Shown: piece after piece, positions 1 through 35,744 of the stretch
How positions within the stretch are numbered: position 1 is the first letter of the stretch
Layout: the number at the start of each line of letters is the position of its first letter
DNA from: a virus
Virus record (IMG/VR): IMGVR_UViG_3300037311_000082
Length of the DNA stretch: 35,744 bases
Strand: one strand, 5' to 3'
The notes under the pieces: generated by a model
The model's input: only the letters and a program-made list of their open reading frames with translations
What the model was told of the DNA's origin: nothing
Database searches by the model: none
Made by a program: the position numbers and the translations under genes

Positions 1-127
1 CGCGCTCGTTGCCGTAGTACGCCTGCAGGAAGGCGAAGACGAGCGCGTGATGGTCCTGCGTGGTGATCGTGTGCATGGGCTGCCGGAGGTCGGCGCCGTC
101 GTTCTCGTGGCCGCCGTAGTGCCGGGC
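1..127. repeat. Terminal overlap copy A (identical to 35618..35744); circular-assembly signature
   Basis: Base-by-base comparison shows 1..127 equals 35618..35744. The repeat lies inside the methyltransferase reading frame, and the frame is continuous across the junction. Confidence 0.95.
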
Positions 128-1123: not shown

Positions 1124-1578
1124 AGCGCATGCCTCCGACGTCGGGCGGCGCACGCGCGGCGCCGCGCTTCTTCATCTCCAAATCCCGCGGCGCGCGCCTC
1201 ATCGGCGTGCTCGGCTGCGTGCTCCGCTCGCGTCATCGCGGCGAGGTTGGAGATGTCGTCGTTGAGTGGATCTCGGTCCTTGTGATGCACGACCATGCCC
1301 CTCGGCAGAGCCATGCCGTGCGCGGCCTCCCATACAACCTTCGCGCGTTCTCGCCACACATTGGGCTCGGCGATCTTCACGAAAGCCCTCTGCGATCCGA
1401 ATCGCATGCGGATGGTCAAGGATCCGACCGGAAGCCGGTTGTGTGCTGGCTGGCCCGGTTGGAACTCGGTGCGCGGGCTCAGGCGCTGCCCCGGCTTGAT
1501 CTCTGTGGCTACTGACGCTCGTGTGCCGCTGGAATAGCGACCGCGCCCGTCACGGCGACCGACGATCAGCTCGCTCAT
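1120..1578 (-). CDS. HNH endonuclease (152 aa)
   Basis: C-terminal part of listed ORF 1120..1887. It starts at MSELIVGRRDG (ATG 1578, ATGA overlap with the upstream stop). HNH motif: VVHHKDRDPLNDDISNLAAMTRAEH. Confidence 0.85.
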   Translation of the reverse strand: MSELIVGRRDGRGRYSSGTRASVATEIKPGQRLSPRTEFQPGQPAHNRLPVGSLTIRMRFGSQRAFVKIAEPNVWRERAKVVWEAAHGMALPRGMVVHHKDRDPLNDDISNLAAMTRAEHAAEHADEARAAGFGDEEARRRACAARRRRHAL

Positions 1579-1784: not shown

Positions 1785-2155
1785 GGGCGCGGCCGCGCGT
1801 GCTTCGCGGCGAGCATCTCGCGGTGCTGCTGGCGGAGCTGGCCCAGCCGGATGCCGTTGTCCTGGTAGGCGCGCTCGAGCCGGGCAAAGCCGGGGTGCGA
1901 CTCGTGCGTCAGCGCCACGGCGCGCCCAAGCTCAGCCGCCTGCCGCAGGCAGTCCGCCATGTCGGGGAACTCCCGCCACGCCTTCCGCAGGGTTTCCCAG
2001 CCGTGGCCGTCCTCGGACTTCTGCCCGGCGTTCCGCCGCGGGCACGACGGGCACAGGAACCGCGGCGTGCTGGCGTCGCAGATGCCGCACTTCGCTGCCC
2101 TGGCATGAACCTCTCCCGACGCGACGGCGTCAGGCAGCGCGGATCGACGAACCAC
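1781..2155 (-). CDS. Hypothetical zinc-ribbon-like protein (124 aa)
   Basis: Listed ORF. It has paired CxxC motifs (CGICD ... CPSCP). Its 5' end overlaps the upstream gene end by 26 nt, so the start is uncertain. Confidence 0.55.
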   Translation of the reverse strand: MVRRSALPDAVASGEVHARAAKCGICDASTPRFLCPSCPRRNAGQKSEDGHGWETLRKAWREFPDMADCLRQAAELGRAVALTHESHPGFARLERAYQDNGIRLGQLRQQHREMLAAKHARPRP

Positions 2156-2954
2156 TGCGGGCCCCCTTCGGCGGATCGCGGGAAATCCAGTTGCGCCAGG
2201 CGCGCACCCAGTCCGAGCGCGGCGTCTTGAACTCGTGGTCGCAGAAGCGCTCGGTCTCGCGCTTCACGAACTCGGGCGAGTAGCCCTGCTCGATGGCCCA
2301 GCGGTAGTCCTCGATGGGGACGGTCCAGTCCTCGGGGACGAAGTGGCCGAGCTTCCCGCGGCGCTTCCGGTTCGACGCTTGCGCAGCAACCGGGGCGGGC
2401 GCGGGAGCAGCGGCTTCCGCTGCGACCTCCCCTCTCGGGCTCTCCCCTCTCCCCCCGTCTGGGTTTGAGTTTGAGTTTGCGTTTGAGGGGCGGTCGGCGG
2501 CGGTCACCGGCGGTCCTCGGCGGTCACCGGCGGTCGGCGCTGGTTCCGGTGGTGGATCGGCGGGCGGGGGCGTTCGACGCTCCCCCATCCGCTCCCGGTT
2601 CGCGCCGGTCTCAACCTCCCGCGCGGCCTTCGCGGCCAGGCGGGCTTTCTCGCGGTAGCGGGCGAAGTTGACGACCTGCCAGCCCCAGTCCCGGTGCGGG
2701 TCCAGCAGGACCAGCCGGGCGCCGTTCTCCGCGTTGCTGCGGCTGTACGGGTCGGGCTCGCAGAAGCGCCGCATGCACGCGACCACGTCGTCATGCGGGA
2801 GGCCGGTGACGCCAGCGATGAAGGCCGGCGTGACATCGACGACGCCGTCCTTGTCGGCCAGGGACAGCACGATGGGCCACAGGCCGATGTCCGGCCAGCG
2901 CCCGCAGAGGGTGCCCGTCGTCAGCGACGAGAACAGCGGCGCGTAGCCGGCCAC
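2130..2954 (-). CDS. Putative replication initiator / replisome-organizer protein (274 aa)
   Basis: Listed ORF 2130..3071, trimmed to GTG 2954 (TAGTG overlap with the upstream stop). It has an N-terminal globular domain, a Pro/Ala-rich linker that contains the DNA repeat array, and a C-terminal W/R-rich domain (FVPEDWTVPIEDYRWAIEQGYSPEFVKRETERFCDHEF..DWVRAWRNWISR) of the type seen in phage O/DnaT-like replication proteins (recalled from memory). Its position after the Cro-like gene matches lambda O. Confidence 0.5.
   Translation of the reverse strand: MAGYAPLFSSLTTGTLCGRWPDIGLWPIVLSLADKDGVVDVTPAFIAGVTGLPHDDVVACMRRFCEPDPYSRSNAENGARLVLLDPHRDWGWQVVNFARYREKARLAAKAAREVETGANRERMGERRTPPPADPPPEPAPTAGDRRGPPVTAADRPSNANSNSNPDGGRGESPRGEVAAEAAAPAPAPVAAQASNRKRRGKLGHFVPEDWTVPIEDYRWAIEQGYSPEFVKRETERFCDHEFKTPRSDWVRAWRNWISRDPPKGARSGSSIRAA
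2463..2535. repeat. Iteron-like array: (GTTTGA/C)x4 followed by five GGCGGTC units at an exact 10-bp period; candidate origin inside the replication gene
   Basis: GTTTGAGTTTGAGTTTGCGTTTGAG spans 2463-2487. GGCGGTC starts at 2489, 2499, 2509, 2519 and 2529. Confidence 0.45.
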
Positions 2955-3310
2955 TACTCGCGCTCCCCGCTCCACAGCGGCTTGCACGATGCGTTGCTGG
3001 TCCGCGCCGGCGCGTAGCCCACGCGGCGGATGATCTTCAGGGCGCTCGCGCGCTTGAACACCGAGCCCCACGCGCGCGCGTCAGCGGGCGGCGGCGCACC
3101 GCCGGCCAGATACGCCTCGATGACGTCCTCGGCGAGAAACGGGTAGGCCGAGTCGGCCGCGTAGGCCGCCAGGAAGTTCAGCGCCTCCTCACCCCAGCCG
3201 GGGCACTCGCTCTCCGCGTGCTCGGCGGCGCGCTGGATGCCGACATCGCGGCGGGCCGCGGCTTCGGCGAGGCTGGGGCGGTCCCAGACGAGGCCGAGCT
3301 GGTCCATCAC
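2954..3310 (-). CDS. Hypothetical protein (118 aa)
   Basis: Listed ORF with balanced composition. ATGA overlap with the upstream gene and TAGTG overlap with the downstream gene. Confidence 0.65.
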   Translation of the reverse strand: MMDQLGLVWDRPSLAEAAARRDVGIQRAAEHAESECPGWGEEALNFLAAYAADSAYPFLAEDVIEAYLAGGAPPPADARAWGSVFKRASALKIIRRVGYAPARTSNASCKPLWSGERE

Positions 3311-3528
3311 GCCCGGCCCCCGGTCGGCAGGTGGCGCACGGACGGGAGCCGGGCCCGAAGGAACTCCGAGATGCCGCGGTACTCGCGGACCTCGACGCCG
3401 CGGCGGAAGTCCACGCCCGGCCGGAGGTTGAGCAGGCCATCGCCCTGCGGGCGGACGGCGCGGCGGTCGGTATCGCCAAGGGGGGCACCCCCGAGGGCGA
3501 CGAAATTTTGGCGCTTATGTTGAGACAC
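3307..3528 (-). CDS. Hypothetical protein (73 aa; sits in the cII-like position)
   Basis: Listed ORF with a GTG start preceded by GGGAGGGGAG. Third codon positions are almost all G/C when read by eye. Confidence 0.6.
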   Translation of the reverse strand: MSQHKRQNFVALGGAPLGDTDRRAVRPQGDGLLNLRPGVDFRRGVEVREYRGISEFLRARLPSVRHLPTGGRA

Positions 3529-3580
3529 GCTCGCTCCCCTCCCGATTCGTGGTCAGGTAGGGCTGCCGGCCCCTACCCCC

Positions 3581-3604
3581 GAAAAACGAACGGGCCGGCC
3601 CCCG
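3581..3604 (-). terminator. Weak intrinsic-terminator candidate downstream of the Cro-like gene
   Basis: The minus-strand RNA reads CGGGGGCCGGCCCG (short GC hairpin) followed by UUCGUUUUUC. The stem is only about 4 bp, so support is weak. Confidence 0.25.
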
Positions 3605-3620
3605 GAGGAGCCAGCCCGTG

Positions 3621-3818
3621 CTATGCGGCGTTCGTCTTGCCCTGGTACGGCGCCATGTCGGGCGCCTTGAGGCGCCCCTGCGTGAGCCGCTCGACCTGGT
3701 ACTGACGCGCCAGCGGAACGGTGTCGCCCCACTGGTGAATGGCTGCCCGGGTAATCCCAAGCGCCCGGGCCAGCTCGGCAGCCGTACCGAATGCAGCGAT
3801 GGCGTCCGCCTTCCTCAT
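3621..3818 (-). CDS. Cro/YdaS-like HTH transcriptional regulator (65 aa)
   Basis: MRKADAIAAFGTAAELARALGITRAAIHQWG is a typical short Cro/YdaS-type HTH. It is the first gene of the leftward operon and is divergent from the plus-strand HTH ORF. Confidence 0.8.
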   Translation of the reverse strand: MRKADAIAAFGTAAELARALGITRAAIHQWGDTVPLARQYQVERLTQGRLKAPDMAPYQGKTNAA

Positions 3819-3891
3819 GGGCGCTGATCGTATGGCCGGCTATACATTGCTGTCAAGCGCACTAACCACGGGCGCCCGCACACTGCCACTC
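3819..3891. promoter_or_regulatory. Divergent promoter/operator region (OR-like)
   Basis: Minus strand: TTGACA (3856-3851), 18 nt, then TACGAT (3832-3827), ending 8 nt before the cro-like ATG. Plus strand: TACATT (3843-3848) within the 12-mer CGGCTATACATT (3837-3848), with a poor -35. The 9-mer ACTAACCAC lies at 3861-3869. Confidence 0.5.
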
Positions 3892-4521
3892 ATGGCCTCC
3901 ACGTTGCAGGACCGCATGACCGAAGCCGCTGCCGACATGGGCAAGCGGTTCAACCGGGCCGATCTTCAGCGGGCCGCCAACGTGACGCGCGTCACGGTGA
4001 GCCAGTGGTTCACCGGCCGGATCAGCAGCCTGACCGGCACCCGCCGGGCTTCCGCTTGCCCATGCGGTATAGTGGACTTGACAGCGTGGTTAGTCGGCTA
4101 TACATTCCCCTCAGCCCGCCCCCACCGACCAAACGCGGTGCCGAGCGAGACGGGGCCCAGACCGGGCCGGGGCGGGCACGAGGGGAGACCGATGAACGCC
4201 GCCAACCTCTGCGACCCCCGCGTCGCCAGCTCCGACCGGATGCGCCGCGCCGCCCAGCTCACGCTCGAGGCGCACCGCCCGTGGCGCCCGGACGGCATCA
4301 GCCTTGCCTGTGTGCAGGACTTCCTCGGCCGCCTCGACTGCCTCGCGCAGGCCGACTTCGTGGCCGAGGCCCTCAGCGAAATGGAGCCGCTCGACCTCTG
4401 CGCCATCGCCGAGGCCGCGCGCACCGGCGAGAGCGCCGAGGCCGGCCGGCTCGTCGCCAAGGCCGTCAAGGTCTACGCCGACAACTACCTCGGCAGCCAG
4501 TACGGGGAGATGTTCCGGTGA
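3892..4521 (+). CDS. XRE-family HTH repressor-like ORF (209 codons if read through; may instead be a short HTH gene plus a separate downstream gene)
   Basis: Same frame as listed ORF 3739..4521. From ATG 3892 it reads MASTLQDRMTEAAADMGKRFNRADLQRAANVTRVTVSQWFTGRI..DLTAWLVG, an XRE-type HTH. There is no stop before 4521. No clear SD precedes 3892; the alternative ATG 3916 is preceded by AGGA. Confidence 0.45.
   Translation: MASTLQDRMTEAAADMGKRFNRADLQRAANVTRVTVSQWFTGRISSLTGTRRASACPCGIVDLTAWLVGYTFPSARPHRPNAVPSETGPRPGRGGHEGRPMNAANLCDPRVASSDRMRRAAQLTLEAHRPWRPDGISLACVQDFLGRLDCLAQADFVAEALSEMEPLDLCAIAEAARTGESAEAGRLVAKAVKVYADNYLGSQYGEMFR
4078..4106 (+). promoter_or_regulatory. Near-consensus sigma70-type promoter (OL/PL-like) inside the HTH reading frame
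   Basis: TTGACA (4078-4083), a 17-nt spacer, then TACATT (4101-4106). The spacer contains GTGGTTAGT (4086-4094), the inverse of 3861-3869. CGGCTATACATT (4095-4106) repeats 3837-3848. Confidence 0.6.
4192..4521 (+). CDS. Hypothetical helical protein (109 aa), first gene downstream of the internal promoter; in frame with the HTH ORF
   Basis: ATG 4192 lies 4 nt after GGGGAG (4182-4187). Composition is balanced and helical. The stop forms a GTGA overlap with the next gene. Confidence 0.55.
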   Translation: MNAANLCDPRVASSDRMRRAAQLTLEAHRPWRPDGISLACVQDFLGRLDCLAQADFVAEALSEMEPLDLCAIAEAARTGESAEAGRLVAKAVKVYADNYLGSQYGEMFR

Positions 4522-5003
4522 GCCACACCATCGAACGCGACTGGACCACTGCCGCCGGTCTGCGGGCCGTGTGCCTGCTGATTCACGGAATGCACCGCTG
4601 CGGCTATGTGGCCGTCGGCGCTGACCACCCGCTGCATGGCGTTGACTACAGCGCCCAAACGACCGTCCTGCCACCGCTGCCGGACGACGAGCCGATGGGC
4701 AAGCGGGGGATCATCCCGCTGATCTGCGCGGGCAGCGTGGAAGCCGCGAGCCAGCGGCCCGATTGCTACTTCGACGTTCACGGCGGGCTCACCTTCAGCG
4801 CCGGTGGCGGGAGGTATCCGGCCGAAGGGTCTGGCCTCTGGTGGTTTGGCTTCGACTGCGGCCACGCCGGCGACGGCAGCCTAAACGACTACATCGTCCG
4901 CAACGGCCTGAACGACGGCCCCGTGCGCGACGAGGAATACGTGGTGGCCGAGTGCGAGTCGCTGGCGCGTCAGCTTGCCGCCGTGGCTGGCGGTGCGTCG
5001 TGA
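4518..5003 (+). CDS. Hypothetical protein (161 aa)
   Basis: C-terminal part of listed ORF 4005..5003, from GTG 4518 (VSHTIERDWTTAAGL...WWFGFDCGHAGD...). Globular-looking composition. Coupled to both neighbours. Confidence 0.7.
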   Translation: MSHTIERDWTTAAGLRAVCLLIHGMHRCGYVAVGADHPLHGVDYSAQTTVLPPLPDDEPMGKRGIIPLICAGSVEAASQRPDCYFDVHGGLTFSAGGGRYPAEGSGLWWFGFDCGHAGDGSLNDYIVRNGLNDGPVRDEEYVVAECESLARQLAAVAGGAS

Positions 5004-5206
5004 GAACCCCGCTGTACCTGACGCCCGCCGAGCATGACCTCGTGCGCGGCCTCGCCGTCACCCACAGCCAGCGCCTCGGCGGGGAGCTGCGCACGCGCAC
5101 CGACCTGACGCCCGAGGGCCGCGCGCGCTACGTCGAGCAGCTCGACACCGTGCTCGGGCTGCTGCGCTCCATCCGGCAGGCGGAGGGCGAGACGTGCGCG
5201 ACCTGA
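5000..5206 (+). CDS. Hypothetical protein (68 aa)
   Basis: C-terminal part of listed ORF 4763..5206, from GTG 5000 (VRTPLYLTPAEHDLVRGL...). GTGA overlap with the upstream stop. Confidence 0.55.
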   Translation: MRTPLYLTPAEHDLVRGLAVTHSQRLGGELRTRTDLTPEGRARYVEQLDTVLGLLRSIRQAEGETCAT

Positions 5207-5322
5207 TCCTCGCCCTCTGCATCCTCGCCCTGCTGGCCCTGGTCGCGGCCCTCGCCGTGGCCGAGGCCGGCGAATCCGACTACCCCACCGCTGCAGAGTG
5301 GCAGCAGGAGATTGACCAGTGA
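5194..5322 (+). CDS. Small single-pass membrane protein (42 aa; below the ORF-track size cutoff)
   Basis: My own translation: VRDLILALCILALLALVAALAVAEAGESDYPTAAEWQQEIDQ*. The hydrophobic helix is followed by an acidic tail. Its stop overlaps the exonuclease start (GTGA). Confidence 0.45.
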   Translation: MRDLILALCILALLALVAALAVAEAGESDYPTAAEWQQEIDQ

Positions 5323-6230
5323 ACGCTGTTGCCGAGAAGTTCCCGAACCGCAACGAGTACCTCGGCTGCTCCGAGGTCGCCGCCGCCGTCGGCCTGAACC
5401 CGTGGCAGACGCCGCTCGACCTGTTCCTCGAGAAGACCGGCCAGGTGCCGCGCCCCGACCTGTCGCAGAAGGACAGCGTGCGCTTCGGCGAGCTGCTGGA
5501 GGACGTGGTCGCCGACGAGTTCGCGCGCCGCTCCGGGCTGGAGGTGCGGCGGGACTCCCGCGAGTTCGCGCACCCCGAGCTGCCGTTCCTTCGCGGGCAC
5601 ATCGACCGCCGCATCGTCGGCCGCCGCGCCGGGCTGGAGTGCAAGACGGCCGGCATCCGCATGGCCGCCGACTTCGGCGAGGCCGGGACCGACGAGGTGC
5701 CGCCGCACTACCTTGTGCAGTGCGCCGCCTACATGGCCGTCACCGGCTTCGACGAGTGGCACCTCGCGGTGCTGATCGCCGGCAACGACTTCCGCACCTA
5801 CCGCATCCCCCGCGATGAGGAGCTGATCGCCGGCATCGAGGCCCGGGCCCGGGCGTTCTGGGACGCCGTGCGGACCGGCCAGCCGCCGGCCGCCGTCACG
5901 GCCGCCGACGTGCGGGCGCTCTACAAGCAGGACGACGGCACCGAAGTCATCGCCACGCCCGAGGTCGCCGAGGCGTGCGCCAACCTCGCCGCTGCGAAGG
6001 CCCAGCTCAAGGCCGCCGAGGCGCTGGAGGAGCAGCTCGCCACCCAGGTGCAGTCCTTCATGGGGCCGCACGCCCGCCTGCTCGGCGCCGACGGCAAGCC
6101 GCTGGCGACGTGGACGACTGTCCGCAGCTCGCGCCTCGACGGCAAGCGGCTGGAGGCCGACCACCCTGAACTCGCGGCCCAGTACCGGGCCGATTCCGTG
6201 TCGCGCCGCTTCACCCTGAAGCTCAAGTAG
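5319..6230 (+). CDS. YqaJ-type viral recombinase exonuclease (lambda-Exo-like PD-(D/E)XK)
   Basis: Motifs LGCSEVAAAVGLNPWQTPLDLFLEKTG, GHIDRRI..GLECKTA and PPHYLVQCAAYMAVTG match the YqaJ domain pattern. It sits immediately upstream of RecT. Confidence 0.9.
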   Translation: MNAVAEKFPNRNEYLGCSEVAAAVGLNPWQTPLDLFLEKTGQVPRPDLSQKDSVRFGELLEDVVADEFARRSGLEVRRDSREFAHPELPFLRGHIDRRIVGRRAGLECKTAGIRMAADFGEAGTDEVPPHYLVQCAAYMAVTGFDEWHLAVLIAGNDFRTYRIPRDEELIAGIEARARAFWDAVRTGQPPAAVTAADVRALYKQDDGTEVIATPEVAEACANLAAAKAQLKAAEALEEQLATQVQSFMGPHARLLGADGKPLATWTTVRSSRLDGKRLEADHPELAAQYRADSVSRRFTLKLK

Positions 6231-6239
6231 GAGCCCACC

Positions 6240-6926
6240 ATGGCCGCCAATCCCGAAACCCTCCCCGTCCGGCAGTACGCCCTCGCCACGCTCGCCGAGC
6301 GGTTCGGCGTGAAGGCCGATGCGCTGTTCCTGTCGTCGCTCAAGTCGGTGGCCTTCAAGGCGCCGAACGCGAGCAACGAGCAGCTCCTCGCGCTGTGCGT
6401 CACCGCCAACCAGTACGGGCTCAACCCGTTCACGAAGGAGCTGTACGCCTTCCCCGACAAGGGCGGCGGCATCGTCCCCATCGTCAGCGTGGACGGCTGG
6501 AGCCGCATCCTCAACGACTCGCCGCAGTTCGACGGGCTCGACTTCGTGGAGGCCGAGGACGGCTCGTGGATCGAGTGCGTGATCTACCGGAAAGACCGTG
6601 CCCACCCGATCAAGGCCCGCGAGTACATGGCCGAGTGCCGCCGCGACACCGCGCCGTGGAAGTCGCACCCGCGCCGGATGCTCCGGCACAAGGCGATGAT
6701 CCAGGCGGCCCGCATGGCCTTCGGGTTCTCGGGCATCTATGACCCGGACGAGGGCGAGCGGATCGTGGCCGTGGAGCGTCCGGCGGCGCCGGCCGGCGCG
6801 ACCCAGACGGAGCGCGTGAAGGCGCTGCTCACCGAGCCCAGCCCGGCGCCCGAGCCCGCCGACCCCGGCGTGACGGACGGCGAGTGGCTGGAGGCTGCCG
6901 GCCTCGGGGACGGGGAGGCCGCATGA
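6240..6926 (+). CDS. recT: RecT/Bet-family single-strand annealing protein
   Basis: Motifs NQYGLNPFTKELYAFPDKGGGIVPIVSVDGWSRI and PWKSHPRRMLRHKAMIQAARMAFGFSG. It is paired with the YqaJ exonuclease. Confidence 0.9.
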   Translation: MAANPETLPVRQYALATLAERFGVKADALFLSSLKSVAFKAPNASNEQLLALCVTANQYGLNPFTKELYAFPDKGGGIVPIVSVDGWSRILNDSPQFDGLDFVEAEDGSWIECVIYRKDRAHPIKAREYMAECRRDTAPWKSHPRRMLRHKAMIQAARMAFGFSGIYDPDEGERIVAVERPAAPAGATQTERVKALLTEPSPAPEPADPGVTDGEWLEAAGLGDGEAA

Positions 6927-7105: not shown

Positions 7106-7200
7106 GCCACGACAGCGACATCGCCGAGACGTGCGAGCTGATCCTCTGCACGCCGGAGGCCGAGGCCAGCATTCGGGGGATTGCCGATGACGACGCCTGA
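7102..7200 (+). CDS. Possible micro-ORF (32 aa)
   Basis: GTG 7102 (GTGA overlap) gives VSHDSDIAETCELILCTPEAEASIRGIADDDA*. The only support is its fit to the coupling pattern of the operon. Confidence 0.3.
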   Translation: MSHDSDIAETCELILCTPEAEASIRGIADDDA

Positions 7201-7312
7201 TATCGGCGACGGCTACGGCTACGGCTACGGCTCCGGCTACGGCTACGGCTACGGCTCCGGCTACGGCGACGGCTACGGCGCCGGCTACGGCGACGGCTAC
7301 GGCGACGGCTGA
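7187..7312 (+). CDS. Gly-Tyr repeat micro-ORF (41 aa): MTTPDIGDGYGYGYGSGYGYGYGSGYGDGYGAGYGDGYGDG
   Basis: My own translation from ATG 7187 to TGA 7310-7312. Gly occupies every second residue across 35 residues and there are 10 Tyr. It is followed by a 13-bp GC hairpin. It is below the ORF-track size cutoff. Confidence 0.45.
   Translation: MTTPDIGDGYGYGYGSGYGYGYGSGYGDGYGAGYGDGYGDG
7205..7309. repeat. Imperfect hexanucleotide tandem repeat (GGCTAC/GGCGAC/GGCTCC/GGCGCC), about 17.5 units
   Basis: Read directly: ggcgacggctacggctacggctacggctccggctac...ggcgacggc. Confidence 0.9.
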
Positions 7313-7377: not shown

Positions 7378-7575
7378 ATGCCACTGATAGGACTGCTTGC
7401 GCTGTTGATTGCCCTCGCTGCCGCAGCCGGTGTCGCCATCGGCTCGCTTCAATGCGGTCTTCGCTGGAATGAGTCTGGCATGGCGAACAAATACTCGGTG
7501 CTTGCAAACACCTGCTTTGTCGAAGCGCGCCCCGGCGTGTGGATTCCCGAAGAACGTTACAGGGAGACGCCATGA
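7378..7575 (+). CDS. Small membrane-anchored or secreted protein (65 aa)
   Basis: Listed ORF preceded by a good SD (ACAGGAGACGTGAG ATG). N-terminal hydrophobic segment MPLIGLLALLIALAAAAGVAIG and two Cys. Located in the lower-GC region. Confidence 0.7.
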   Translation: MPLIGLLALLIALAAAAGVAIGSLQCGLRWNESGMANKYSVLANTCFVEARPGVWIPEERYRETP

Positions 7576-8162
7576 ACGCAACCGAATGGGCCGAGAGGCT
7601 GGAGGCCCGACCTGTGCAGCGAACGAGGGCATGGTGCGCGAAGGCCGTGCCGCCCATTTTGAATGACGCAGTCATCGCCAGGTTCTGGCGCGACGTGCGT
7701 ATTTCCACCGATGACCAGTGCTGGGAATGGGCAGGAAGTCGGACCGCAAACGGGTACGGCAGGTTCTGGATTCTGCGCAGGGGGCATGCTGCCCACCGCA
7801 TCGCCTACGCCATAGCCAATGGCCCTGCGCCATCCAATCTGATGGTGTGCCACCACTGCGACAATCCTGCGTGCGTCAACCCCAGTCACTTGTTCTTGGG
7901 GACGGCGGCGGACAACGTGCATGACATGTTGAGGAAGGGGCGGAGGCCGCGACTGTTTGGATCAGCCAGTTCAAACGCGAAAGTTCATGAACGCGACGTT
8001 GAATCTATTCATGACCTGCGGTTGGCGGGGTGGACCCAATCAGCCATCGCCAGCCGTTTTGGCCTGAGCCAGCCGACTGTGTCGGAGATTCTGTCGGGTA
8101 AAAAGTGGCCCCATGTCGCCGCGGCAATCGAAGCCCGCCGCCGGGCCGAGGGAGGGGAGTGA
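7572..8162 (+). CDS. HNH homing-type endonuclease with C-terminal HTH domain (196 aa)
   Basis: Listed ORF 7539..8162, trimmed to ATG 7572 (SD GGGAG, ATGA overlap). Motifs CWEWAGSRTANGYGRF, AHRIAYAIANG and VCHHCDNPACVNPSHLFLGTAADNVHDM. C-terminal HTH: LAGWTQSAIASRFGLSQPTVSEILSGKKW. Confidence 0.9.
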   Translation: MNATEWAERLEARPVQRTRAWCAKAVPPILNDAVIARFWRDVRISTDDQCWEWAGSRTANGYGRFWILRRGHAAHRIAYAIANGPAPSNLMVCHHCDNPACVNPSHLFLGTAADNVHDMLRKGRRPRLFGSASSNAKVHERDVESIHDLRLAGWTQSAIASRFGLSQPTVSEILSGKKWPHVAAAIEARRRAEGGE

Positions 8163-9355: not shown

Positions 9356-9739
9356 GTGACCGACACGCTCACCATCGCCGAAGCCGCCGAGCTGCTCCAC
9401 CTGCACCCGGACACCGTGCAGGCCCGCGCCGCCGCTGGCATCATCCCCGGCTACCGGCCGGGACGCCGGTGGGTGTTCCTCAGGGACGAGCTGCTGGCCT
9501 ACCTGAGGTCGACCGCCCCATGCTCTACAAGCGCCCCGATTCGCCCTTCTGGTGGGTCCGGTTCACCGTCGGTGGACGCCGAGTTAGATGCTCTGCTGAG
9601 ACGGCCAGCCGGCGCGAGGCGGAGGCGTTTGCGCATCGTCTCCGGGAGCGGGAATGGCGGCGCAGCAAGACCGGCGAGCGCACGTGGGCCGAAGCCTGCG
9701 TCCGCTGGCTCCGCGAGCACCAGCACAAGCGAAGCCTAG
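9356..9739 (+). CDS. xis: Excisionase-family / MerR-like HTH DNA-binding protein (the functional domain is roughly the first 55 aa)
   Basis: LTIAEAAELLHLHPDTVQARAAAGIIPGYRPGRRWVFLRDELLAYL matches the excisionase-type HTH pattern. It sits directly upstream of int. The frame stays open for 220 nt into int and encodes a low-complexity tail. Confidence 0.6.
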   Translation: MTDTLTIAEAAELLHLHPDTVQARAAAGIIPGYRPGRRWVFLRDELLAYLRSTAPCSTSAPIRPSGGSGSPSVDAELDALLRRPAGARRRRLRIVSGSGNGGAARPASARGPKPASAGSASTSTSEA

Positions 9740-10536
9740 ACCGGGACCAGGCCGTCATCGCGTGGAGCCGGGACCACCTCGGCGACGCCTTCCTCGCCGA
9801 CCTGGACCGCGACCGCCTGACCGCCCTGCGGGCCCTGCGGACCGGGGGCCCGGCCACCGTGAACCGGGACATGGCCGTCGTCCGCGCCATCCTGAATGCC
9901 GCCGTGGACTGGGGCTGGCTGCCAGCCGCACCCAAGGTGCCCATGGCGACCACCACCAGAGAGGACCCGCGCTGGCTGACCCGGGAGGAGTTCTCGGCCC
10001 TGCTCGGGCACCTGCCCGGCCACACCCGGCAGCTCGCGCGCTTCGCCGTCGCCACCGGGCTGCGCCGGGCCAACATCACGGGCCTGCGGTGGTCCCACGT
10101 GGACCTCGGGAGGCGGCATCTCGCAATCCCCGGGCGACTTTCGAAGTCCGGCCGCCCCATCCCCGTGCCCCTGAACGCCGACGCGCTCAGGGTGCTTCTG
10201 GTGCAGCGGCGCGTGACCCGGGAGCGGGTCCGCCGGGGCATCCCGTGGGTGTTCCCGTACCGCGACGAGCCGCAGTCCCAGGTCGCGACGGCGGCGTGGC
10301 GGCGCGCGGTCAAGGCCATCGGCCGCGAGGGCTTCCGCTTTCACGACCTCCGCCACACGTGGGCGAGCTGGCACGTGCAGGCCGGGACGCCGCTGCACGC
10401 CCTCCAGGCTCTGGGCGGCTGGTCGACGCTGGCGATGGTGCAGCGCTACGGGCACCTGGACAGCGCCTCGCTGCGGAGCTACGCCGACGCGGTGGGGCAC
10501 GTATCTGGCACGCGGGCCCGGAGGCGGTCGGCGTAA
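9520..10536 (+). CDS. int: Tyrosine integrase (338 aa)
   Basis: Listed ORF 9469..10536, trimmed to MLYKRPDSPFWWVRFTVGGRRVRCS (typical N-terminus). Catalytic signatures: ATGLRRANITGLRW, HDLRHTWASWHVQAG and GGWSTLAMVQRYGHL. Confidence 0.93.
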   Translation: MLYKRPDSPFWWVRFTVGGRRVRCSAETASRREAEAFAHRLREREWRRSKTGERTWAEACVRWLREHQHKRSLDRDQAVIAWSRDHLGDAFLADLDRDRLTALRALRTGGPATVNRDMAVVRAILNAAVDWGWLPAAPKVPMATTTREDPRWLTREEFSALLGHLPGHTRQLARFAVATGLRRANITGLRWSHVDLGRRHLAIPGRLSKSGRPIPVPLNADALRVLLVQRRVTRERVRRGIPWVFPYRDEPQSQVATAAWRRAVKAIGREGFRFHDLRHTWASWHVQAGTPLHALQALGGWSTLAMVQRYGHLDSASLRSYADAVGHVSGTRARRRSA

Positions 10537-35343: not shown

Positions 35344-35744
35344 GCCGCTGCCCTCGCTTCGTTCTCGACGTAGTTGGCGCGCACGATGGCGGCGGCCACC
35401 GGCGGGCTGACGGAGTTCCCGCAGAGGCGGACCTGGCTCGTCTTCGTGCCCGTGAGGATCGTCGACGCCGGGAAGCCCTGGGCGGCGAACAGCTCGCGGG
35501 GCTCGAGCATCCGCATGCCGATGTCGGCGATGTAGTGCTGCTCGCCCTTGACCATGACGAGGCCGAAGCGGTCCTTGGTGACCACCGTCCCCATGGGGTC
35601 GAGCAGCGACCGGCCCTCGCGCTCGTTGCCGTAGTACGCCTGCAGGAAGGCGAAGACGAGCGCGTGATGGTCCTGCGTGGTGATCGTGTGCATGGGCTGC
35701 CGGAGGTCGGCGCCGTCGTTCTCGTGGCCGCCGTAGTGCCGGGC
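35340..35744 (-). CDS. DNA (cytosine-5)-methyltransferase, C-terminal part (same gene as 1..1123; 35618..35744 duplicates 1..127)
   Basis: LFAAQGFP (motif IX) and CGNSVSPPVAAAIV (motif X). The frame is continuous with the minus-strand frame of 1..1123. Confidence 0.9.
   Translation of the reverse strand, partial: ARHYGGHENDGADLRQPMHTITTQDHHALVFAFLQAYYGNEREGRSLLDPMGTVVTKDRFGLVMVKGEQHYIADIGMRMLEPRELFAAQGFPASTILTGTKTSQVRLCGNSVSPPVAAAIVRANYVENEARAAA
35618..35744. repeat. Terminal overlap copy B (identical to 1..127)
   Basis: Same as copy A. Confidence 0.95.

Follow-up and report, generated by a model that had tools for sequence, protein, structure and literature searches.

The locus considered here raises the question of whether one long open reading frame (ORF), which begins like a phage repressor and continues through promoter-like DNA into a second start codon, is a single gene with two products or the seam between two genes. 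The window, by which we mean the whole 35,744-nucleotide (nt) stretch of IMG/VR virus record IMGVR_UViG_3300037311_000082, carries this frame on its plus strand from ATG 3892 to TGA 4521 (209 codons), and the public gene call P0001 is the same 209-amino-acid (aa) product. A sequence-only reading of the DNA had pointed to TTGACA-17-TACATT at 4078-4106, GGGGAG at 4182-4187 and ATG 4192, all of which are indeed present and in the same frame, and had proposed either a 209-aa repressor accompanied by an internally initiated isoform lacking the helix-turn-helix (HTH) domain, or a minimal HTH gene that had lost its stop and abuts the first gene behind a PL-type promoter. Our analyses make it very probable that the 209-codon frame is a deletion scar, in which codons 1-51 of a repressor gene are joined by chance, in frame, through an early promoter to an unrelated gene, orf109. 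In all likelihood this is no new regulatory design, and the phage is simply a derivative of a temperate phage with a defective repressor. The features on which this argument turns are as follows.

3892-4044, plus strand: remnant of a cI-type repressor gene, codons 1-51, with HTH helices 1-3; 43 of 51 residues identical to the intact protein P0002
4045-4058, no strand: junction; left breakpoint at 4044/4045, right breakpoint within 4045-4058, immediately before the distal PL operator
4067-4103, plus strand: operator-like 16-mers GTATAGTGGACTTGAC (4067-4082) and GGTTAGTCGGCTATAC (4088-4103), overlapping the PL-like -35 and the spacer/-10
4078-4106, plus strand: PL-like rightward early promoter, TTGACA-17-TACATT, 10 of 12 consensus positions; predicted transcription start site (TSS) at about 4112-4114
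4113-4191, plus strand: 5' leader of the rightward operon, with the Shine-Dalgarno sequence (SD) GGGGAG at 4182-4187 and a predicted three-way-junction core at 4114-4177
4192-4521, plus strand: orf109, first gene of the rightward operon, all-helical and stand-alone, with stand-alone homologues and a GC content by codon position of 0.72/0.49/0.97

A repressor gene that breaks off at codon 51

An open frame of 209 codons is by itself weak evidence for a gene, because stop-free windows are common at the 72% G+C of this DNA: across all six frames they make up 59% at a length of 49 codons and 20% at 209 codons, and many long ORFs lie antisense to, or overlap, ORFs with coding-type codon bias. Homology gave a more specific answer. 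Among 5.8 billion proteins, the 209-aa sequence matched only itself and P0002, whose gene on the ENA contig L001 faces an 83%-identical cro. BLASTP against P0002 aligned residues 1-51 with 43 identities (84%) and revealed no match afterwards. At the DNA level, positions 1-427 of L001 and 3618-4044 of the window are 82% identical without a gap, and this similarity ends exactly at 4044, such that only 19 of the next 60 nt agree. Within the 51 shared codons, 16 of the 27 differences from L001 fall at third positions, and in the 73-nt region between cro and the ORF 10 positions differ.

The break lies inside the DNA-binding domain. The Pfam profile HTH_3 matches intact P0002 over positions 12-55 of 55 at 29.9 bits, whereas on the window ORF it covers residues 22-46, reaching only positions 12-35 of the 55 and a score of 14.8 bits (cut-off 23), such that a complete HTH (helices 1-5, with HTH_3 above its gathering score) is lacking. 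The suggestion that the first 70 or so residues form an XRE-type HTH was therefore too generous, as only residues 1-51 are homologous. In its placement the ORF does follow the repressor family, starting at 3892 on the plus strand opposite cro and sharing the promoter/operator region with it.

Intact repressors of 142, 153 and 167 aa stand opposite cro in L001, L026 and L027, respectively; the latter two loci were found through Cro, and L027 is a contig of a Gammaproteobacteria metagenome-assembled genome. Cro of the window is 83%, 77% and 68% identical to that of the same three relatives. The three intact repressors have in common the motifs WLSxGEGPKR, LFRKMDD, ISNPxDP and PPAPPLP, and none of the four occurs after residue 51 in the aligned window ORF. 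Repressors of this family are 142-167 aa long, with a short helical region and a proline-rich tail and without an S24 peptidase domain; no S24/LexA domain was found in the window ORF either, in agreement with the earlier remark that its C-terminal part has no such signature. P0002 had no match among PDB sequences. The proposal that an HTH gene had lost its stop and abuts the first PL-type gene thus stood, and the description of that gene as minimal did not, the remnant being the 5' third of a 142-167-aa repressor gene.

Other searches for relatives returned little. Among 50,697 phage records, BLAST found no match to the DNA at 3300-5300 or to the 209-aa protein, and no relatives emerged when viral_contigs was scanned for patterns from orf109 and P0002, and genome_contigs for patterns from Cro; a metagenome scan with Cro recovered L001 again and otherwise only distant Cro loci.

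A small extra gene follows the intact repressor in two relatives. In L001 it occupies 742-1245 and encodes a secreted-looking protein with a signal-peptide-like N-terminus; L001 ends before any PL region. In L026 it encodes a 98-aa hydrophobic protein (1183-1479, minus strand) after the repressor and before the PL region. In lambda this position is occupied by rex, and the window lacks the corresponding DNA.

The gap at 4045-4191 and the gene beyond it

GC content by codon position divides the 209-codon frame into three parts. The remnant (3892-4044) has 0.57/0.57/0.92 and orf109 (4192-4518) 0.72/0.49/0.97, whereas the gap between them (4045-4191) has 0.65/0.71/0.71. Because this profile is flat across codon positions where both flanking coding parts peak at the third, 4045-4191 is non-coding, and residues 52-100 of the 209-aa ORF are translated promoter and leader DNA. 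The same DNA, with its promoter, operators and leader, is conserved as non-coding sequence in the relatives L020 and L021. Two of the three frames are open across the promoter because all three potential stops of this promoter type (TAG 4070, TGA 4079 and TAG 4091) share one frame. It had been stated that both other frames carry stops within the promoter elements; only one of them does, and the third, with ORF 4005-5003, is open.

Evaluating orf109 in other genomes revealed a gene that stands alone. An exhaustive HMMER search of 1.84 billion representatives returned three homologues, 108, 112 and 109 aa long, with N-termini that line up with ATG 4192, and the family is small, with three clusters at 50% identity among these representatives. 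In the relatives the gene lies at or near the start of the recombination-gene operon. At the level of sequence comparison, the locus that is decisive for the status of orf109 as a separate gene is L026. On this contig cro faces the intact 153-aa repressor gene, complete with its stop; next come the 98-aa gene, an intergenic stretch containing CTTGACA and a long leader, and an orf109 homologue of 111 aa (48% identical, E 3e-19). In L021 the orf109 homologue has a different upstream gene and is preceded by in-frame TAG, TAA and TAG codons, and in L023-L025 it is the third gene of the operon, facing a single HTH gene. The view that repressor and orf109 form one gene does not survive these homologues, with a stop, a gene and an intergenic promoter region between the two in L026 and in-frame stops in L021.

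Structure prediction gave a similar picture of orf109. AlphaFold2 models the 109-aa product (four sequences) as all-helical, with a mean predicted local distance difference test score (pLDDT) of 89.9 and a predicted template modelling score of 0.79, which bears out the expectation of a helical protein and predicts that it folds on its own; the model of the whole 209-aa protein, made from a single sequence, has a pLDDT of 41 and says nothing useful about its fold. A fold search with the orf109 model against PDB and BFVD returned nothing at E <= 0.001. An N-terminal extension of orf109 from GTG 4138 was considered and dropped, as this codon has no SD and the homologues start at the position of ATG 4192.

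These observations bear directly on the idea that the 209-aa protein works as a repressor or as a chimeric regulator, with the 109-aa internal product as its dominant-negative partner or built-in anti-repressor. Such a regulator would fit the intact frame, the retained start codon of the repressor and the finding of the junction in several samples, such that the variant persists, and the compact helical domain modelled for orf109 could in principle oligomerise. Yet the HTH lacks profile positions 36-55 and the protein lacks the conserved motifs of its intact relatives; the 49-residue linker has no codon periodicity and consists of promoter, operator and leader DNA that is non-coding in relatives; and no homologue of the fusion exists among the 5.8 billion proteins searched, apart from identical copies of the phage. 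Among its relatives orf109 is a gene of its own in every case, in one case standing third in an operon with no repressor gene upstream, and the chance that the remnant landed in the orf109 frame was about 1/3 from the outset. We therefore regard a chimeric regulator as very unlikely. In the deletion-scar account, the supposedly internal promoter at 4078-4106 is the ordinary early promoter of the rightward operon, and together with the SD and ATG 4192 it would provide the normal expression signals of orf109 and no internal start within a repressor gene.

It is likewise highly improbable that the in-frame join is other than neutral, with read-through from the repressor's promoter yielding the 209-aa chimera, which would act as a novel pair of regulators with the free orf109 made from PL, perhaps as a weak repressor and its built-in antagonist; if true, such a pair could explain the persistence of the variant in several samples. 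The comparison that had been drawn was with Tn5, where transposase and inhibitor both come from one evolved gene and the long form is conserved and functional. As in Tn5, a promoter, an SD and an ATG lie within a longer frame, and the shorter product would lack the DNA-binding N-terminus. Unlike in Tn5, the long form is not conserved, being confined to this one phage, and the break falls within its DNA-binding domain. The stretch that separates the two starts does not encode protein, and the signals that look internal are those of an independent gene, its ancestral promoter and start.

One operator-like type at two promoters, and the probable origin of the junction

The immunity region as a whole is lambdoid, with a PR-like promoter directed leftward into cro and replication, a PL-like promoter directed rightward into recombination and int, and a repressor gene expected between them; we recognise this layout because cro and the replication genes on one side and the recombination genes and int on the other diverge from the genome's two sigma-70-like promoters. 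The whole 35.7-kb window has only two such sites, 4078-4106 on the plus strand and 3856-3827 on the minus strand, with about 0.9 expected by chance. What had been taken for an unusual immunity-region design is thus a standard lambdoid layout that carries a deletion. The features of the leftward side, together with the second gene of the rightward operon, are these.

3590-3619, minus strand: terminator-like hairpin and T-run directly after cro, in a tR1-like position; 13-bp stem with 10 G-C pairs
3621-3818, minus strand: cro-like gene, 65 aa; Pfam P22_Cro, E 5.2e-22; PHROG 409, transcriptional regulator
3827-3856, minus strand: PR-like leftward early promoter, TTGACA-18-TACGAT, one of the genome's two sigma-70-like sites
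3830-3867, minus strand: operator-like 16-mers GTATAGCCGGCCATAC (3830-3845) and GGTTAGTGCGCTTGAC (3852-3867), overlapping the PR-like -10/spacer and -35
4518-5003, plus strand: orf161, second gene of the rightward operon; PHROG 2164, E 1.8e-20; its start overlaps the orf109 stop

In the immunity regions of lambda and P22, cI or c2 lies opposite cro, PR and PL share operators, and the PL operon holds recombination genes and int. The window resembles them in its divergent repressor and cro genes, its two strong early promoters, both overlapped at the -35 and -10 by one type of operator-like site, its terminator after cro, and its PL-side operon with exonuclease, annealase and integrase, and the order in L026 of cI, a small extra gene and PL recalls the cI-rex-PL order of lambda. 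It differs from them in its truncated repressor gene, in a repressor family without an S24 peptidase domain, in having two operator-like sites per promoter and not three, in that no N or nut homologues were recognised in it, and in a virion module that is podovirus-like.

Each of the two early promoters has two operator-like 16-mers, 21-22 bp apart. The pattern GKWTAG-N4-CYWKAC, which was derived after inspection of these very sites, occurs four times in the window, always at the two early promoters (0.00 expected). It recurs at equivalent sites in L001 and L020, the latter with the same layout upstream of its orf109 homologue, and as single sites about 70-85 nt upstream of cro in seven distant loci with Cro proteins 47-60% identical to that of the window (L007, L008 and L010-L014). 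This distribution across related sequences suggests that the 16-mers are an operator type conserved for this Cro/repressor family. As PL and PR share the 16-mer type, the right side belongs to the same immunity group, as an internal deletion predicts. An invertible segment bounded by inverted promoter repeats was also considered for this region and dropped, the repeats being two divergent promoters with the same operator-like type.

In the deletion that we propose, the lost DNA would extend from codon 52 of the repressor gene, past the end of that gene, to a point about 20 nt short of the PL operators. Codon 51 would then have been joined to the DNA at that point, with the remnant reading in frame into orf109 to give the 209-codon ORF. 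Similarity to the PL region of L020 begins at about 4059. The left end of L020 was examined as a possible 3' end of a repressor gene, and this was dropped, since its similarity to the tail of P0002 is no better than noise.

A different route to the same junction would be illegitimate recombination, with a crossover inside cI that brought in a foreign right arm (PL, leader, orf109 and onward) from another phage. Mosaicism is high among these phages: L021 has the leader and the YqaJ-RecT genes in common with the window (87% DNA identity) and has neither its orf161 nor its operators, L023 shares scattered blocks at 84-97% identity, and no parent sequence is at hand. However, PL carries the operator-like 16-mer type of PR, which makes the right arm homoimmune and fits a deletion within the region, and operator type and orf109-type gene are also paired in L020, which comes from the same sample as the intact-repressor contig L001. 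We consider such a crossover unlikely, and its outcome would be identical, namely a truncated repressor gene.

Metagenome-derived data also call to mind an assembly artefact, in which two contigs would have been wrongly fused at 4044/4045. At least three JGI contigs and one Logan contig (SRR13020431; 100% identical over 6117 nt) have exactly this junction, and because it is seen in several contigs, that of SRR13020431 included, we do not take it for an accident of assembly. No long repeat lies at the junction either, the longest element common to both promoter regions being 12 nt, and an artefact is hardly credible.

The arms of a perfect 13-nt inverted repeat lie on either side of the junction, one in the remnant (CATGGGCAAGCGG, 3936-3948) and the second 8 nt beyond the junction on the right (CCGCTTGCCCATG, 4052-4064). 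It is not conserved in L001, and it may be due to chance or be a trace of the origin of the rearrangement.

Several points weigh against a deletion scar and its supposed consequences. No direct parent, which would be this phage with a whole repressor gene, was found, and for the right endpoint and the deleted content we rely on relatives whose Cro proteins are no more than 68-83% identical. The repressor's start codon and an intact frame are kept, such that the 209-aa product may well be made, and it is again from sequence that we infer promoter and operator activity, the lytic phenotype and the standing of the 209-aa protein as a non-functional by-product. In L020 the frame of the orf109 homologue (orf108) is open upstream through the promoter to the end of the contig, an observation that we counted neither way. 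Lastly, ten further ORFs of the window, mostly small, gave no HTH against Pfam at E <= 0.01, a set that covers part of the possible alternative repressors.

Immunity, leader and parallels in other phages

The source is a temperate-type podophage with a complete circular genome and a lambdoid immunity region. An exact direct repeat of 127 bp at both ends of the window (1-127 and 35618-35744) indicates a circular assembly of about 35.6 kb and a complete genome. The window encodes terminase, portal, major head protein, tail, internal virion proteins and endolysin, and genes for a DNA methylase and for HNH endonucleases are also present. The portal reaches no more than 32% identity with its counterpart in any deposited phage, and no tRNA genes were found in the window. 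The leftward early operon begins with cro and runs to a replication-initiator-like gene at 2130-3071 (PHROG 1408). The PL-like operon includes a RecE/YqaJ-type exonuclease (5319-6230), a RecT-type annealase (6240-6926), an HNH endonuclease and an integrase (9469-10536; PHROG 1, E 2e-69).

With no complete repressor, lysogeny would not be maintained, and the phage would grow lytically and be of the clear-plaque type. With all four operator-like sites intact, the repressor of a homoimmune prophage could still shut it off. Such a repressor-defective phage, lytic and still repressible in trans, is suggested because the integrase and the operator-like sites are kept, the remnant has coding-type composition and the DNA is free and circular.

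The alternative is that the remnant is irrelevant and that lysogeny is kept by another, unrecognised repressor or immunity system elsewhere in the genome. An intact integrase would be in keeping with this, as would the many small ORFs without annotation and the L023-L025 loci, which have only one HTH gene at the switch. Against it, beyond cro and the remnant the sole regulator-like match among the tested ORFs lies in the C-terminus of the HNH endonuclease at 7539-8162 (residues 156-189, a PHROG transcriptional-regulator match at E 1.2e-08); the operator-like sites match those of relatives that carry the very cI family truncated here; and the contig is free circular DNA without host flanks. Lysogeny maintained in this way appears quite unlikely, and we retain the reading of a phage that lost its repressor by deletion.

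Change at the C-terminal end of a repressor has another known cause, seen in the mycobacteriophages BPs and Brujita, where attP lies inside the repressor gene and free and integrated genomes encode different repressor C-termini. The window is like them in that the C-terminal end of its repressor differs from those of relatives. It is unlike them in where the break falls: theirs is in the 3' part of the gene, beside int and with the DNA-binding domain whole, whereas here it is inside the HTH and is followed by the PL promoter. Integration-dependent immunity was thus rejected as an explanation, with the break at codon 51 and int about 5 kb away.

A closer parallel comes from natural, obligately lytic derivatives of temperate phages with partial repressor deletions, such as D29 and MissWhite (PMC6550527). 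As in the D29 type, the integrase, cro and four operator-like sites are kept and the repressor is partly deleted relative to close relatives. In contrast to the D29 type, the 3' two-thirds of the gene are lost here, not the 5' end, and what is left of it continues in frame into the expressed gene that follows. A D29-type lytic phenotype would follow from the sequence, with the free circular contig (127-bp overlap) as an indirect hint.

The leader of the rightward operon is far more conserved than its surroundings (window 4107-4191; L021 496-585). From about 4114 to 4179, a stretch that includes the core, it is identical in L021 and L022 except for one hairpin loop, which reads GGCCC-AGACC-GGGCC in the window and GGCC-GGAA-GGCC in L021/L022, whereas promoter and operators differ there and the orf109 homologue is 48% identical. 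In the predicted fold (dG -55.5, z -4.5), CCCCUC just 5' of the expected TSS is able to pair with the SD. A second conserved leader type of about 120 nt occurs in L020 (104-232) and L026 (972-1092, minus strand), each of the two types being represented by only two sequences. Rfam found no family in 3400-4400, with one sub-threshold chance match, and an exact search for the leader core in genome_contigs and viral_contigs found none. On conservation and predicted folding, the PL leader could be a nut/put-like element or a translational control element.

On the leftward side, the ATG of cro lies 8 nt past the -10 hexamer TACGAT without an SD (3818-3832, minus strand), as it does in L001, and this spacing indicates that the cro mRNA is probably leaderless or nearly so; ATG 3892 of the repressor remnant has no SD either. 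The terminator-like hairpin with its T-run is identical over 40 nt in the window and in L026 (2210-2239), where Cro is only 77% identical. In the rightward operon, orf161 has 770 homologues, and its relatives on the large contigs L016-L019 have different layouts that are uninformative for the junction. Farther right, between the RecT-type gene and an HNH endonuclease gene, lies a short-period repeat region (about 7180-7312) in which a plus-strand frame reads (GYGYGS/GYGDGY)n and an antisense frame (AVAVAVAG)n.

For annotation, the locus illustrates that in high-GC phage genomes a long frame with a recognisable domain, called as a gene by a pipeline (P0001), can be a deletion scar through a promoter, and that codon-position GC together with a single intact relative settles the matter of gene versus scar. 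The fusion poses no new question of gene regulation, and greater originality lies in three side findings: the conserved PL leader, the 16-mers of operator-like type that this Cro family shares, and the uncharacterised fold of orf109. For the biology of these viruses, the window adds another natural case of a temperate phage that has lost its repressor, recovered as free circular DNA and with the same junction in several public assemblies, and it is relevant to the question of how frequently environmental phages that count as "lytic" have arisen recently from temperate ones.

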